Assembly: GCA_025451995.1 (NCBI GenBank)
Contig: JANWJE010000060.1
Span: 1-24,000 of the forward strand
Reading direction: 5' to 3'
DNA: 24,000 bases
Source: Parachlamydiaceae bacterium
GTDB lineage: Bacteria; Chlamydiota; Chlamydiia; Chlamydiales; Parachlamydiaceae
The notes under the pieces were generated by a model, which saw nothing but the letters and a program-made list of their open reading frames with translations, ran no database searches and was not told where the DNA came from. Of this stretch, positions 12,328 through 21,313 are shown piece after piece; the first letter of the stretch is position 1, and each line of letters opens with the position of its first letter. The position numbers and the translations under genes were made by a program.

Positions 12328-13578
12328 CTAATTTATGGAACAGATGGATTTCCGGGAGGTATTGTTTATAATTTCTTCGGCTAATTTAATGTATGCAAAT
12401 TTTAAATTGGATTCTATAGTTTTTCGTATATGGGAGGGGAGGTCTTTTTTCTGAAGAAGCTGAAGGCTTAGATCGCGGCATTCTTGAAAATCTCCTTTCC
12501 AATAAGCTGCAACTGAGCATTCAAGAGCTAAATCGTATTGATAGGGAGCCGTCTCCACGAATAATGTATCTTGCGGAAATGGAATGGTCATTCCTAAAGA
12601 GGCTGTTTCATAAGCTTGTTCAAACATGTTTAAACTACGATACAATTTTGCTAAAGCACATAAAGGTTCGGCTCTTGTAGGGCGATAGAAGAAAGCTGTA
12701 TAGAAAGCTTCAATGACTATTTTGGGATCAGCATCAATAGTTTGGTTTAATTTTGCGATTTGATATAGACTATAATAGACTTCTTGATCCCAGCCCCCAG
12801 CTTCGGCTCTTTTTTTATAATTTTCTATAGCAAGTTCAAATTCCCCCGCATCGCGATAAGATTGCGCTAAGTAAAATCTATAACGGACATTATCTGGTTC
12901 TTCTTTTAAAGCTGCCTCTAATACACGTGCATCTTTTAAAAATTTTTGAAGATCGCTAGAACGATGTCCGTCTTTACCGGTTGTGCGATATATATTCACT
13001 AAAGACTCTACCGTTTTACAATCTGGTGAATATAAATACTCATGTAGAACACCGTACCATTTCCAATCAAGAATTGATTTTACTAAGGCAACTCGATCAT
13101 ATTGCAAATTTCCAAAGAGCATAGTCATATCATATCTGTCTTTTTCTAAGTTGGGCCAATAATAGTTATATGAATATTCTAACATTTCATCTGCATCTAT
13201 AAATAATATATAATCTGCTTTACCTTTTGCCAATTCTAATGCCTCATTGCGGTTATAGGCAAAATTGATCCACTGGCTTTCATGTAATTCCCCAGGAATT
13301 TCTTTTAAATATTCTTTGATTATAGTTTGTGTACCATCATTAGATCCAGTATCAACAATGACCCAATAGTCAATAAGGGGTAGAACAGATGCTAAGCAAC
13401 GTGTAATAACGTGACTTTCGTTTTTTACAATCATATTTAGACAGACTCTCTTTTTGTCTATTTTATTGGGAATATCATTCAATGAATCATCTGCAAACGC
13501 CTTAATTGGAATGATTTGATTGCAGGATGCAAATAAGATAAGTAGATAAGTGAATAATACTGTTTGAATTTTAGACAT
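12328..13578 (-). CDS. Family-2 glycosyltransferase fused to TPR repeats, with cleavable-looking signal peptide
   Basis: GT-A core: VCLNMIVKNESHVITRCLASVLPLIDYWVIVDTGSNDGT...ADYILFIDADEMLE (the DAD acts as the DxD motif). C-terminal TPR-like region: YRFYLAQSYRDAGEFELAIENYKKRAE..YYSLYQIAKL. N-terminus MSKIQTVLFTYLLILFASCNQIIPIKAFA/DD, with an A-x-A site. Confidence 0.8.
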   Translation of the reverse strand: MSKIQTVLFTYLLILFASCNQIIPIKAFADDSLNDIPNKIDKKRVCLNMIVKNESHVITRCLASVLPLIDYWVIVDTGSNDGTQTIIKEYLKEIPGELHESQWINFAYNRNEALELAKGKADYILFIDADEMLEYSYNYYWPNLEKDRYDMTMLFGNLQYDRVALVKSILDWKWYGVLHEYLYSPDCKTVESLVNIYRTTGKDGHRSSDLQKFLKDARVLEAALKEEPDNVRYRFYLAQSYRDAGEFELAIENYKKRAEAGGWDQEVYYSLYQIAKLNQTIDADPKIVIEAFYTAFFYRPTRAEPLCALAKLYRSLNMFEQAYETASLGMTIPFPQDTLFVETAPYQYDLALECSVAAYWKGDFQECRDLSLQLLQKKDLPSHIRKTIESNLKFAYIKLAEEIINNTSRKSICSIN

Positions 13579-13774
13579 CTTAAACCCGGTTTATTTGTAA
13601 ATATCGTCAATAATTGATGTTTTTCGTTCCTTACCCGTTAACAATCATCTTAGGAAAAATTTCAGTCCCTAAATTATTAAAGATCTGAATTAAGTATCTA
13701 TAAAAAAAATTTACAAAAAAAATTTTTTTCTTTAAACACCTTTATTGCTGAACAAAATATTAAGGAAAAGGAAC

Positions 13775-14875
13775 ATGAAAAAATATTTAAAAAATACAGC
13801 AACTTTGCAAGCATTAAGCTTGTTAGTTTACGCTCCAATTTTGGAAGGAACTTCTTTACCAGATCTTTCAAATAAAGGCAAGGTTGCATTTGGTAATGAG
13901 ATAGAGTTTTCAACTATCTCCCAAAAAGAAAAAATTGAAGAGTCGATCAAATTGGTTTCTTCAAGCTCAAAACAAATTGTTACCTATCCTGCTTTTGACG
14001 GCATTAATAGACGTATAGCAATTTCGGAAGTTTATGAAGATGGGGAATTGTCTCCAGAAATTTTCATCTCTCCTTCTGGAATGAATGCAGAAAATTTAAA
14101 GATATATACCGGGAAAGATGGCAATAGCATAGCTGCATGGGTGAATTATTCCAATGATTTGAAAGAGGTAAACGCACAAGCTATCAGCTTAAAAGATGGC
14201 GATGCTCTTTTTTCTGCTATAAATGCATATGAAGTTGATGTCAAATCATCAGATGATATTGTTATTTGGTCTAATGAAGCTAATCTTTTAAATGAAAATG
14301 TAGATTCGCATTCTATAGATCTATTGACAACTATTACTTCAAATCTAATCAATGAAAAGACAATTTCTAATGAAAATTTTCTGCCACTCATTTCTCATAT
14401 TGATTTTTCCATTTGCGAAATTGATAAATACGAAATGTTGAGTGATTTAAATTTGAGAGAAGATTTAAATGAAATATTGGATGAGATTTTGGATGTTGAA
14501 CAATTTTCTGTTCTTTCTAATAAAGAAATTAAAAAAAAGTTCAAAAAATTAAAACATAAAGTTAAAAATAGAAAAAAAGGAGCTTCTGGTCCTCGTGGAC
14601 GAAGGGGATTACCAGGCGTTCAAGGTATGCCAGGAGCTATGGGTATACAAGGTACTCCTGGACCAACAGGAGCAACCGGTTTACCAGGACCTGAAGAAGA
14701 AGGCCCTACAGGCCCTACAGGTGAAGAAGGTCCAACTGGAGCAACAGGCGCTACTGGAGCAGGAGCAACAGGCGCTACTGGGGCAACAGGAGGCACCGGA
14801 CCAACAGGAGGCACTGGGCCAACAGGAGCGACAGGACCAACAGGACCAACAGGACCAACAGGAGCAACAGGGTAA
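13775..14875 (+). CDS. Secreted collagen-like (Gly-X-Y triple-helix repeat) protein
   Basis: The start is set at ATG 13775 ([25 protein letters not shown]), which has an AAGGA RBS; the track TTG 13745 is less likely. A roughly 250-aa unrecognised domain and an acidic/basic helix ([32 protein letters not shown]) precede 98 aa of GXY repeats that run to the stop codon. Confidence 0.85.
14579..14872 (+). repeat. Collagen-like coding repeat: 31 Gly-X-Y triplets in three blocks (13 + 6 + 12), 19 of them G-x-Thr
   Basis: [98 protein letters not shown]. The DNA contains near-perfect 9- and 18-bp tandem units (ggaccaaca x3; gcaacaggcgctactgg x2). Confidence 0.92.
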
Positions 14876-19738: not shown

Positions 19739-19744
19739 AAGGAA

Positions 19745-21313
19745 ATGAAAGTAAAATATTTGCTATTTTTATTTTGTTTAACAGCATTTTTGCCACTTTT
19801 TTCAGAGGGTAATAAAAGGGTATTAATTGGTTCACCTATTCGTCAAAAGCCTGCAATTTTGCATGAATTTCTCGAATCTTTAAAACGTCTTGAACAAGAA
19901 GGATATGAAGCTGATTATTTTTTTATTGATGATAATGATGTAGCTGATTCTACATATGAACTTATTGATTTTGCCGACCAATGTGATAAAAATTGCATCA
20001 TTTTAAATCCCGAAGCACAAGTTGATAGAATTCCTTATACATGCAATGAAAATACACACTACTGGAGCGATGCTAACATTTGGAAAGTTGCAGCTTTTAA
20101 AGATACAATCATAGAACATGCGATTGACAAAGAATATGACTATTTATTTTTAATCGATTCAGACATTGTCCTTCACCCAAGAACTATTGTACAACTTATT
20201 GCAACAGAAAAAGATGTTGTTTCAAATATTTTTTGGACATCTTGGCAAAATGGTGCGATAGAACAACCTCAAGTATGGTTATTTGATGAATATACCCAAT
20301 ATCAGGTAATTCCAGGAAATACTATAACTGATGAAATCAAGCGTGAACAAGTGCTTGCGTTTTATCATCAATTAAGGGTGCCCGGCACATATGAAGTTGG
20401 AGGACTTGGGGCTTGTACATTGATTAGCCGCAATGCTTTAACAAAAGGGGCTCGATTTAAAAAAATTTCAAATCTTACTTTTTGGGGAGAAGATCGTCAT
20501 TTTTGTATCCGCGCAGCAGCTTTGGGGCTTTCTCTTTTTGTAGATACCCATTTTCCGGCTTATCATATCTATCGCGAATCAAATTTAATTGGGGTTCCGG
20601 ATTTTATAGCAAACTTTAAACCTCGTGTGACACTTTCGATGGTTGTAAAAAATGAAGCTGATCGATATTTAAGAGAGGTTCTTAGCCATGCCAAAGAATG
20701 CATTACTGATGCAGTGATCATTGATGATTGTAGCGAGGATAATACAATAGAAGTATGTAGGGAAATTCTAAAAGGAATTCCTTTAAAATTAATCCAAAAC
20801 AATCAATCACTTTTCTCAAATGAAGTTAACCTAAGAAAACTCCAATTCGAAGAAACGCTAAAAACTAATCCGGATTGGATTTTGGTACTAGATGCTGATG
20901 AAATATTTGAAGAAAAATTTAAAAGTGAAATTCATAAATTGATATCTAATAAAAATGCGGAAGTTTATTGCTTTAGATTGTATGATTTTTGGGATCAAAA
21001 CCATTATCGTGAAGATACATATTGGCGTGGACATTTAACATATCGTCCATTTCTATTGCGGAACAAATGCGATATAGAATGGACTTGGCTGGAATCGCCC
21101 CAACATTGTGGACGCCTACCTCAAAATATTATTTCTATTCCATGGATTCAATCTCACATGCGTTTGAAACATTTTGGATGGGCAAAAGAAGAAGATCGAA
21201 TTGCAAAATATCAGCGTTATTTGGAATTAGATCCTGGATTTAAATATGGGTGGAAAGAACAATATGAGTCTATAAATGATAAAGAACCAAATCTTATTGA
21301 GTGGGTTGAATAG
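19745..21313 (+). CDS. Two-domain glycosyltransferase with signal peptide (N-terminal GT-A domain with Anp1/Mnn9-like motifs + C-terminal GT2 domain)
   Basis: Signal peptide MKVKYLLFLFCLTAFLPLFSEG. Domain 1: DYFFIDDND...YLFLIDSDIVLHPRTIVQLIATEKDVVSNIFWTSW...GEDRHFCIRA. Domain 2: VTLSMVVKNEADRYLREVL..AVIIDDCSEDNT..WILVLDADEIFEE, paralogous to the GT2 core of 12328..13578. It starts 6 nt after the wecB stop, with an AAAGGA RBS. Confidence 0.78.
   Translation: MKVKYLLFLFCLTAFLPLFSEGNKRVLIGSPIRQKPAILHEFLESLKRLEQEGYEADYFFIDDNDVADSTYELIDFADQCDKNCIILNPEAQVDRIPYTCNENTHYWSDANIWKVAAFKDTIIEHAIDKEYDYLFLIDSDIVLHPRTIVQLIATEKDVVSNIFWTSWQNGAIEQPQVWLFDEYTQYQVIPGNTITDEIKREQVLAFYHQLRVPGTYEVGGLGACTLISRNALTKGARFKKISNLTFWGEDRHFCIRAAALGLSLFVDTHFPAYHIYRESNLIGVPDFIANFKPRVTLSMVVKNEADRYLREVLSHAKECITDAVIIDDCSEDNTIEVCREILKGIPLKLIQNNQSLFSNEVNLRKLQFEETLKTNPDWILVLDADEIFEEKFKSEIHKLISNKNAEVYCFRLYDFWDQNHYREDTYWRGHLTYRPFLLRNKCDIEWTWLESPQHCGRLPQNIISIPWIQSHMRLKHFGWAKEEDRIAKYQRYLELDPGFKYGWKEQYESINDKEPNLIEWVE

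Follow-up and report, generated by a model that had tools for sequence, protein, structure and literature searches.

The stretch of DNA analysed here, the first 24,000 nucleotides of contig JANWJE010000060.1 from a Parachlamydiaceae bacterium (hereafter, the window), contains an island of seven open reading frames (ORFs), one of which encodes a collagen-like protein with GxT repeats. Five enzymes are encoded with it: a protein glycosyltransferase (GT) with tetratricopeptide repeats (GT2-TPR), two S-adenosylmethionine (SAM)-dependent methyltransferases (MT1 and MT2), a UDP-N-acetylglucosamine (UDP-GlcNAc) 2-epimerase (WecB), and a glycosyltransferase with two catalytic domains (dual GT). The collagen-like protein, which we presume to be the substrate for glycosylation, and all five of these enzymes begin with a hydrophobic leader. 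We have little doubt that the leaders are real, conserved, of the Sec type and specific to one lineage, and they are unusual for nucleotide-sugar and SAM enzyme classes, as the initial annotation had pointed out. With less assurance, we lean toward a reading of the whole island in which substrate and enzymes are exported by Sec, and glycosylation takes place outside the cytoplasm with donors from the host.

Hydrophobic leaders of the cassette proteins and their homologues

The N-termini of GT2-TPR, MT1, MT2, WecB, and the dual GT each contain an uncharged hydrophobic run of 14–19 residues, as found by a scan for hydrophobic (h) regions, and the same scan finds a hydrophobic leader in the collagen-like ORF. 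The h-region of WecB contains one Glu. Leaders are present on 6/7 of the island ORFs, whereas only 2/13 of the other ORFs in the window have a genuine membrane-type N-terminus (Fisher p = 0.004). The scan is a simple hydrophobic-run heuristic that gives false positives on the GxGxxG β1 strands of Rossmann folds, such as those of an FAD oxidoreductase and the WecB core, and the counts were checked by eye. The five N-termini quoted in the initial annotation are exactly as read from the ORFs listed in Table 1, and its domain assignments for the six island enzymes were borne out by Pfam and TIGRFAM matches. Its tally of leaders on five of six enzymes is better put as five of the five conserved cassette enzymes plus the substrate; the sixth enzyme, a HIT-HAD fusion, is not a part of the cassette. 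That tally left out the collagen-like gene, which is the key to the island.

It could be argued that the leaders are annotation artefacts, and that translation starts downstream to give ordinary cytoplasmic enzymes. If TTG and GTG are allowed, there are internal candidate starts at codon 33 of GT2-TPR (TTG), codon 16 of the dual GT (TTG), and codon 26 of WecB (GTG), all of them after or inside the h-region. Thus, the earlier claim that no downstream start removes the leader is correct for MT1 and MT2, which have no alternative start within 70 codons, but not for the other three if these codons are admitted. The long-form starts are, however, preceded by purine tracts resembling Shine–Dalgarno (SD) sequences, namely AAGGAG for MT1, AAGGAA for the dual GT, and GAAAGAG for the GTG of WecB. 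Furthermore, in-frame hydrophobic leaders, frequently started by ATG, persist across diverged homologues, and the conservation of the leader in WecB homologues supports the start at GTG 18548. The reading frame ahead of the core is closed by a stop within a few codons in all of the Firmicutes loci but stays open in the chlamydial ORFs. Leader conservation together with the SD motifs speaks strongly against a start-codon artefact, which we consider extremely improbable.

For the comparison of loci, one genome per species was taken, giving 27 loci, each of which was read upstream to the in-frame stop. In all five families, the closest homologues, from Chlamydiae, Dependentiae, and unnamed metagenomic sequences, bear leaders, whereas the leaderless homologues, from endospore-forming Firmicutes, phage-like contigs, and a giant-virus metagenome-assembled genome (MAG), begin 2–10 residues ahead of the same core motif. 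The leader has been kept although its sequence has diverged completely among the homologues. The proteins nearest to the dual GT are from Parachlamydiaceae and Chlamydiia MAGs (57–65% identity), followed by one from a ‘Verrucomicrobia’ MAG. After these matches from the Planctomycetes–Verrucomicrobia–Chlamydiae (PVC) group come many Firmicutes proteins at 50–56% identity (Paenibacillus, Bacillus, Priestia, Sporosarcina, and Brevibacillus). All of the named PVC proteins start with a hydrophobic leader, and all of the named Firmicutes proteins begin 2–10 residues before the first strand, (R/K)(V/I)L(V/I)GSP. Among the top 120 matches, a leader is present in 74 (median N-terminal extension, 25 aa) and absent in 46 (median, 6 aa), and the named proteins among these 46 are all from Firmicutes. 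A neighbor-joining tree was made from 109 dual-GT cores after removal of the leaders. The leader state requires 6 changes on this tree, whereas shuffled labels never need fewer than 26 (mean, 31), and 32 of the 37 leaderless proteins form one clade.

The other families behave similarly. Both the dual GT and WecB have leaders in loci of Parachlamydiaceae (L001), Chlamydiae (L004), Anoxychlamydiales (L006), and Dependentiae (L010), and the GT2-TPR of L010 is also leader-bearing, as are both the dual GT and the GT2-TPR of a Chlamydiia locus (L002). The WecB of a Clostridioides locus (L024) has none. In GT2-TPR, a leader precedes the core ICLNMIVKNE in 108/120 of the top matches, including PNK_1450 of Protochlamydia naegleriophila. 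The leaders of the closest metagenomic homologues of MT2 end in CSA, SSA, CHA, or CDA, with the conserved FDYxxWWE following at once, while the Firmicutes homologues (Priestia, Brevibacillus, and Paenibacillus) start 2–8 aa before FDY. The closest homologues of MT1 (P0365–P0372 and P0383) have leaders, one of them of the lipoprotein type, and the distant homologues have none; the leader of P0367 is a lipobox-type LLFTGC, followed by a Gly/Ala tether. Overall identity is 55–69% to Chlamydiae and then about 50–56% to endospore-forming Firmicutes. The relatives from viral collections are at 27–46% identity and are all leaderless. They include two phage-like IMG/VR contigs (L031 and L033) with dual GT, MT1, MT2, and GT2-TPR, and a giant-virus MAG (L034, GVMAG) in which WecB adjoins a fusion of dual GT and MT1. 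The presence of the genes on such contigs suggests that the cassette has been spread by phages or viruses. On the evidence of these sequences, the leader is a precisely placed N-terminal addition, specific to the Chlamydiae/Dependentiae lineage.

What kind of leader is this? The h-regions of the homologues have medians of 14–15 aa (interquartile range, 13–17), and the leaders directly abut the first strand of the catalytic fold in all five enzymes, with the core beginning 2–11 residues past the h-region. A short h-region with the core so near is what one expects of a Sec signal peptide that is cleaved off, rather than of a 20-residue anchor plus a stem, and the initial description of the N-termini as the hallmark of Golgi type II transferases was thus overstated. 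The n-region has a charge of +1 to +3 in GT2-TPR, MT2, WecB, and the dual GT, with family means of +1.3 to +1.7. The net charge is higher on the N-side in 12/14 leaders of the MT2 family and in 63/95 of the GT2-TPR family, and the flanks after the h-region are acidic in the window MT1, MT2, and GT2-TPR. Among the 14 leader-bearing members of the MT2 family, position −1 is A, G, S, or C in 12, and position −3 is C, S, A, I, or L in 13, whereas the leaderless homologues mostly have K, P, or E at the corresponding position before the core. Leaders ending in FA, SA, or LA are seen in many homologues of the dual GT, MT1, and GT2-TPR. In the AlphaFold2 model of the dual GT (pLDDT 90.3), a helix of residues 2–14 is detached from the fold, residues 16–20 are disordered, and the first strand starts from residue 24.

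The GT2-TPR of the window has both a lipobox-like LFASC (in LILFASC) and an AXA-type site, KAFA. Lipoprotein targeting as a general rule was ruled out, since the lipobox pattern is found in only 8 of about 510 family members, this GT2-TPR included. In a minority of GT2-TPR homologues (P0257, P0260, P0263, and P0270), a segment of 19–21 residues is followed by a stem of 30–40 residues, which resembles a signal anchor. Taken together, the leaders point to an N-in/C-out placement of the catalytic domains, which would be exported and, for the most part, cleaved.

Some further observations were made on leaders in related loci. The Anoxychlamydiales MAG L006 has four tandem dual-GT paralogues at 1196–9483, each with a nearly identical leader (MKKYLL..FASENSQN). 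One of these paralogues is fused to two methyltransferase domains, and the array adjoins a gene for a collagen-like protein with PVTPV repeats and a leader-bearing WecB. In the P. naegleriophila locus (L080, 8514–8552), an in-frame leader-like stretch, KKKLFFISSSCFFLGLGAEE, lies 5′ of an Anp1-like methyltransferase gene, directly after a stop codon; it has no canonical start codon, and the annotated TTG start is inside it. This may be a miscalled start, noncanonical initiation, or a decaying leader. A small family of GT-like proteins is found beside the cassette at L002 3583–4398 (..RISIITSVWNGDD) and L006 10858–11676 (..RLSIITSIFDG). These have an N-terminal hydrophobic segment of about 20 residues, followed by a K/R cluster (KKK or KPR), a different and anchor-like layout of ambiguous orientation.

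The collagen-like protein and the identity of the cassette

Collagen-like GxT genes adjoin GT genes in many other loci: in Chlamydiia (L002), Anoxychlamydiales (L006), and Dependentiae (L010, with two genes), in Paenibacillus (L003), Rossellomorea (L013), and Shimazuella (L018), in L021, and in Priestia megaterium (L028/29) and P. naegleriophila (L080, LN879502.1). Leaders are present on the collagen-like proteins of the window, L010, and P. naegleriophila. The last of these resembles BclA in combining a signal peptide with a collagen region of GxT repeats and a globular domain at the C-terminus. The probable start of the gene in the window is ATG 13775, which is preceded by TAAGGAAAAGGAAC (SD), rather than TTG 13745, and the ORF contains tandem repeats of 9, 27, and 36 bp at 14696–14871. 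It ends within the GxT repeat array, without the C-terminal globular domain that is present in the counterparts from P. naegleriophila (L080, 7277–8374) and Dependentiae (L010, 4498–7317). The window ORF could be truncated or naturally short, or its repeats could have been collapsed during assembly.

The relatives of GT2-TPR with solved structures are GmaR (6e-10), SunS (1e-6), and then ThuS, and domain 2 of the dual GT matches PF00535 and PF13704 as well as SunS and GmaR. When the whole dual-GT model was searched with Foldseek, the human procollagen galactosyltransferase COLGALT1 (GLT25D1) was the top match (4e-17), followed by LH3, SunS/ThuS, and mimivirus R699. GmaR, SunS, ThuS, COLGALT1, and LH3 are all protein glycosyltransferases. 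The two DxD motifs do not vary among the dual GTs, whether or not a leader is present, so the leader-bearing forms still look like nucleotide-sugar enzymes; the SAM motifs of the methyltransferases are retained as well. Judged by gene content and neighbourhood, the cassette belongs to a known kind, in which a collagen-like glycoprotein is paired with a transferase of the SgtA type, and its leader-bearing form is a variant of the BclA/SgtA type, not a strict exosporium system.

SgtA of Clostridioides difficile is a 358-aa GT-A protein with TPRs, encoded beside bclA3, which transfers β-O-GlcNAc from UDP-GlcNAc onto threonines of the collagen repeats (PMC7157674). Compared by published architecture, the SgtA/BclA3 pair and the island share a collagen-like gene with GxT or GPT repeats adjoining a gene for a GT-A protein with TPRs. 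Homologues of GT2-TPR, the dual GT, MT1, and MT2 adjoin collagen-like genes in Firmicutes as well (P. megaterium, Paenibacillus doosanensis, and Shimazuella). The exosporium systems differ in that the Firmicutes proteins are leaderless and belong to the mother-cell cytoplasm, whereas all components of the present cassette carry leaders of the Sec type, and the organism of the window is nonsporulating, diderm, and intracellular. An exosporium or endospore context with cytoplasmic enzymes was not found for this cassette, the closest relatives of which are in Chlamydiae and Dependentiae.

The dual GT has a second set of relatives among collagen glycosyltransferases of the endoplasmic reticulum (ER). 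The dual-GT profile A1 matches the GT1 domain of COLGALT1 with E = 1.4e-8 in hmmsearch, between profile positions 19–157 and COLGALT1 residues of about 10–163. The C-terminal GT25 catalytic domain of COLGALT1 has no match in the dual GT, the second stretch scoring −3.2 bits. With COLGALT1 and LH3, the dual GT shares the layout of a (here predicted) signal peptide before two GT-A domains, and it would likewise act on a collagen-type substrate in an extracytoplasmic lumen. It differs from COLGALT1 in that domain 2 is a SunS/GmaR-like GT2 and not GT25, the likely acceptor is threonine and not hydroxylysine, and there is neither a lysyl hydroxylase nor an ER-retrieval motif. In addition, domain 1 has an invariant DxD, while GT1 of COLGALT1 is noncatalytic (PMC12003778). 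In the 2025 paper on that structure, the BLAST relatives of GT1 came only from animals and giant viruses (PMC12003778). COLGALT1 GT1 now gains a large bacterial family with an intact DxD that is tied to collagen-like genes.

The resemblance of domain 1 to fungal Anp1/Mnn9, which the initial annotation had noted, lies above the Pfam threshold (PF03452 on residues 22–169, 32.3 bits vs. a cutoff of 28.8; profile 19–176, 158/263 positions), and it reaches as far as COLGALT1. In the dual GT, as in Anp1/Mnn9 (GT62), the GT-A fold is preceded by a hydrophobic segment at the N-terminus. Its h-region, however, is 14 aa, it has no stem, its first β-strand follows 5 residues on, and it is bacterial. The leaderless Firmicutes homologues match PF03452 equally well, so the Anp1/COLGALT1-like domain, being common to them, is uninformative about the leader. 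GmaR, SunS, and ThuS, the best sequence relatives with solved structures for GT2-TPR and for domain 2 of the dual GT, combine a GT-A domain with a helical-repeat domain for substrate binding and act on Ser, Thr, or Cys of protein substrates. These enzymes differ in being cytoplasmic and leaderless, and their substrates are flagellin and glycocins.

Layout of the island and neighbouring genes

The region at 12.3–21.3 kb has a G+C content of 0.28–0.36, below that of its flanks (about 0.37–0.44). On the left, the island is bordered by an ADP-ribosylglycohydrolase gene, beyond which are housekeeping genes, including those for MurB, NusB, and an rRNA methylase; the right border is UvrD/PcrA. A tRNA scan found none flanking the island. 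The features are collected in Table 1. Within GT2-TPR, the PF00535 match covers residues 49–133, and the TPR families cover 215–271. WecB matches TIGR00236 with 369.3 bits (cutoff, 210) over residues 25–390, and its 24-residue leader lies outside the model.

Table 1. Coordinates of the island ORFs, their leaders and domains, in window positions.
Feature	Position	Strand	Match or sequence
Island of seven ORFs	12328–21313		
GT2-TPR, GT2 (GT-A) + TPR protein glycosyltransferase, 416 aa	12328–13578	−	PF00535 E = 4e-13; TPR families
GT2-TPR leader, residues 1–30	13489–13578	−	MSKIQTVLFTYLLILFASC/NQIIPIKAFA/DD
Collagen-like GxT-repeat protein	13745–14875	+	PF01391 E = 2.4e-10; SclB/SclA/Lcl models
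MT1, class I SAM methyltransferase, 249 aa	15010–15759	+	PF08241 E = 3e-9
MT1 leader, residues 1–21	15010–15072	+	MYCLLLYFMSFCIFLIQSIEG
MT2, class I SAM methyltransferase, 220 aa	16018–16680	−	PF08242/PF13489
MT2 leader, residues 1–24	16609–16680	−	MKKKLNYLLFVNFILILCFQLESS
HIT + HAD fusion, 456 aa, without leader	16901–18271	+	PF01230 and PF13419
WecB, nonhydrolysing UDP-GlcNAc 2-epimerase, 396 aa, GTG start 18548	18548–19738	+	TIGR00236
WecB leader, residues 1–21	18548–18610	+	(M)FKRIIFSLSLLVELTLFAIG
Dual GT, 522 aa	19745–21313	+	PF03452 Anp1 plus GT2
Dual GT leader, residues 1–22	19745–19810	+	
Dual GT domain 1, residues ~24–290			Anp1/COLGALT1-GT1-like
Dual GT domain 2, residues ~295–522			GT2, SunS/GmaR-like

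The HIT-HAD protein was rejected as a conserved cassette member, since none of the 80 related loci has a homologue of it. It is also leaderless and is treated here as a probable passenger inside the island, outside the conserved cassette. In the PDB, it matches the glucose-1-phosphatase YihX (3.8e-7), a sugar phosphatase, and its N-terminal 170 residues or so match no assigned domain. The exact sequence is absent from the protein collection, so the gene caller had chosen another start.

The ADP-ribosylglycohydrolase gene (10556–12130, minus strand; PF03747, E = 2e-49) encodes an N-terminal extension of about 130 residues. This extension has two hydrophobic stretches with a short loop between them, ITAINAIALTTLVCSIWQLV ... 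VGISGICLKFALDTIW, resembling the bilobed hydrophobic domain of chlamydial Inc proteins, and the protein may be a membrane-inserted effector. A rnpA-like ORF (RNase P protein; 10221–10583, plus strand) overlaps the 3′ end of this convergent gene by about 28 bp.

Proposed site of glycosylation, alternatives, and implications

What would this set of enzymes do outside the cytoplasm? We propose that the island is a cassette that has spread horizontally and serves to produce a collagen-like surface protein bearing glycans, akin to the BclA-type exosporium glycoproteins of Firmicutes. The SgtA-like GT2-TPR would start O-glycosylation at threonines of the GxT repeats, and elongation would fall to the dual GT. 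The role of WecB would be to make UDP-N-acetylmannosamine from UDP-GlcNAc, and the sugars would be capped through methylation by MT1 and MT2. In spore-formers, the BclA-type substrate encounters its enzymes in the part of the mother-cell cytoplasm that lies outside the forespore, so an export signal is not needed. In the Chlamydiae/Dependentiae versions, the substrate and all of the conserved enzymes would have gained a Sec-type signal peptide, with some variants of the lipoprotein or signal-anchor type, and would all cross the inner membrane. Glycosylation would then occur in the periplasm, at the surface of the cell, or within the vacuole that derives from the host, with host-derived UDP-GlcNAc and SAM reaching that space, and the host cell would play the part of the mother cell. 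Among the explanations offered initially, secretion of the enzymes into a compartment containing nucleotide sugars is the one best supported. That the proteins are exported by Sec and cleaved, where catalysis occurs, where the donors come from, and which chemistry builds the glycan are all inferences; catalysis outside the cytoplasm with host donors has an even chance or perhaps slightly better.

The supply of donors is the most demanding part of the proposal. Before they can be taken up by the nucleotide transporters of the inner membrane, nucleotides from the host have to pass the outer membrane. Chlamydia imports host SAM through an inner-membrane transporter (PMC3104491), so SAM must cross the periplasm. 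In the case of Chlamydia trachomatis, the host transporter SLC35D2 carries UDP-glucose into the inclusion lumen, where a secreted bacterial GlgA uses it (Gehre et al. 2016; PMC4829429). Together, these imports and the lumenal UDP-glucose make donors outside the cell plausible for obligate intracellular bacteria. The lumenal glycogen system is similar to our proposal in that a nucleotide-sugar enzyme works outside the bacterial cell on a host UDP-sugar delivered by a host transporter. It differs in its use of type 3 secretion instead of Sec leaders and in its product, which is glycogen and not a glycoprotein; SAM-dependent steps and a lumenal nucleotide-sugar epimerase are outside the scope of that work. 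As an analogy, it is the sole precedent that we found for the proposed donor supply.

Several observations weigh against export of active enzymes. The n-region of MT1 has a charge of 0 and is not basic, and the window c-regions SEG, IEG, and ESS conform less well to the canonical pattern than do many of those in homologues. Charge does not favour either side in the dual-GT family (N>C and N<C in 18 leaders each, equal in 12), and residues rich in K/R come directly after the leader (SEG/NKR in the window). Positive charges early in the mature region hinder Sec export in Escherichia coli. The charge-bias test is itself uninformative for the dual GT, because the mature N-terminus is intrinsically K/R-rich. 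Leaderless isoforms of GT2-TPR, the dual GT, and WecB could in principle arise by initiation at the internal TTG and GTG codons. The organism also has its own cytoplasmic UDP-GlcNAc metabolism, as seen from MurB (2022–2921), so that a cytoplasmic route is available. Finally, in the HMW1/HMW1C system, the protein is glycosylated in the cytoplasm and then exported; thus, export of the enzymes is not strictly needed.

These points bear on the possibility that the leaders are uncleaved anchors on the cytoplasmic face (N-out/C-in, or re-entrant helices), with glycosylation just before the Sec channel. Such an arrangement would have its donors at hand in the cytoplasm and would agree with the neutral charge bias and the K/R residues of the dual GT, as well as with the 20-residue segments followed by KKK or KPR in some of the neighbouring GT-like ORFs of L002 and L006. 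However, basic n-regions with acidic residues after the h-region in the MT1, MT2, and GT2-TPR families argue for the opposite orientation, h-regions of 13–17 aa are short for a stable transmembrane span, and, if the helix spans the membrane, the 2–11 residues before the first β-strand leave no room for the fold. The lipoboxes and the AXA-type junctions indicate that processing occurs at the outer face, and a soluble epimerase and small methyltransferases would have no obvious gain from being anchored. We consider this arrangement unlikely, and the membrane-tethered cytoplasmic assembly line considered in the initial annotation is disfavored by the charge bias, the lipobox, and the AXA-type junctions.

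The enzymes might instead be effectors directed at the host, leaving the cell by Sec and then by type II secretion or vesicles to glycosylate or methylate proteins of the host or the vacuole in place of the collagen-like protein. Secretion of nucleotide-sugar transferases into the host cell has precedents among intracellular bacteria, such as Legionella Lgt/SetA and NleB. GT-A enzymes with TPRs are protein glycosyltransferases, and the Inc-like bilobed N-terminus of the ADP-ribosylglycohydrolase is a sign of effector biology in the neighbourhood. The link to collagen-like GxT genes is nevertheless conserved in Firmicutes, Chlamydiae, and Dependentiae, and similar enzyme sets are present on some phage-like contigs, which argues for an endogenous substrate. 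Spore-formers, which have no host, keep the same enzyme set, and a UDP-GlcNAc epimerase with sugar methyltransferases fits the building of a glycan, so we think an effector role distinctly unlikely. The remaining proposal made at the outset was an origin of the genes in eukaryotes or giant viruses. The genes, or their leaders, would then be those of Golgi/ER type II transferases captured by an amoeba symbiont, which is in accord with the matches of domain 1 to Anp1 and human COLGALT1, the genes on giant-virus MAG L034, and the presence of mimivirus R699 among the fold matches. Against it, the closest relatives of the five enzymes are bacterial, in the order of identity given above, and the top 120 matches in three families are all bacterial or unnamed metagenomic sequences. 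The viral relatives are more distant and leaderless, the Anp1/COLGALT1-like domain is shared with leaderless Firmicutes enzymes, and the leaders have the geometry of bacterial signal peptides. The identity ranking and the leaderless viral homologues speak against a eukaryotic or viral origin, and we give it hardly any credence.

With Sec export of substrate and enzymes as the preferred reading, what would this mean? According to the textbook rule, extracytoplasmic glycosylation in bacteria proceeds through lipid-linked donors, since nucleotide sugars and SAM are cytoplasmic. The cassette is a natural experiment on this rule, with the same five families and the same substrate in two forms. Those of spore-formers, of phage-like contigs, and of a giant-virus MAG are leaderless, and those of intracellular symbionts of protists are uniformly leader-tagged. 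A limited search of the literature gave nothing relevant on collagen-like proteins with GTs in Chlamydiae or Dependentiae, or on GTs with signal peptides in Parachlamydiaceae. What appears to be new, in that it was not found in the searchable literature, is the uniform readdressing by Sec leaders of a substrate together with soluble nucleotide-sugar and SAM enzymes in intracellular symbionts. Since the cassette is present in P. naegleriophila, which is in culture, the question is directly testable.

It is conceivable, although we would not put it as high as an even chance, that Chlamydiae and Dependentiae run a complete soluble O-glycosylation pathway with UDP-sugars and SAM outside their own cytoplasm. 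Such a pathway, with an epimerase, initiating and elongating transferases, and methyltransferases around a COLGALT1-related enzyme, would be fuelled by the host and convergent with collagen glycosylation in the ER. If the exported enzymes are indeed active, the periplasm or vacuole would be a metabolically competent compartment supplied by the host, and the precedent of UDP-glucose in C. trachomatis would extend to the glycosylation of proteins and to methylation. The collagen-like protein would then also stand as a newly identified surface glycoprotein with a probable role in contact with the host.

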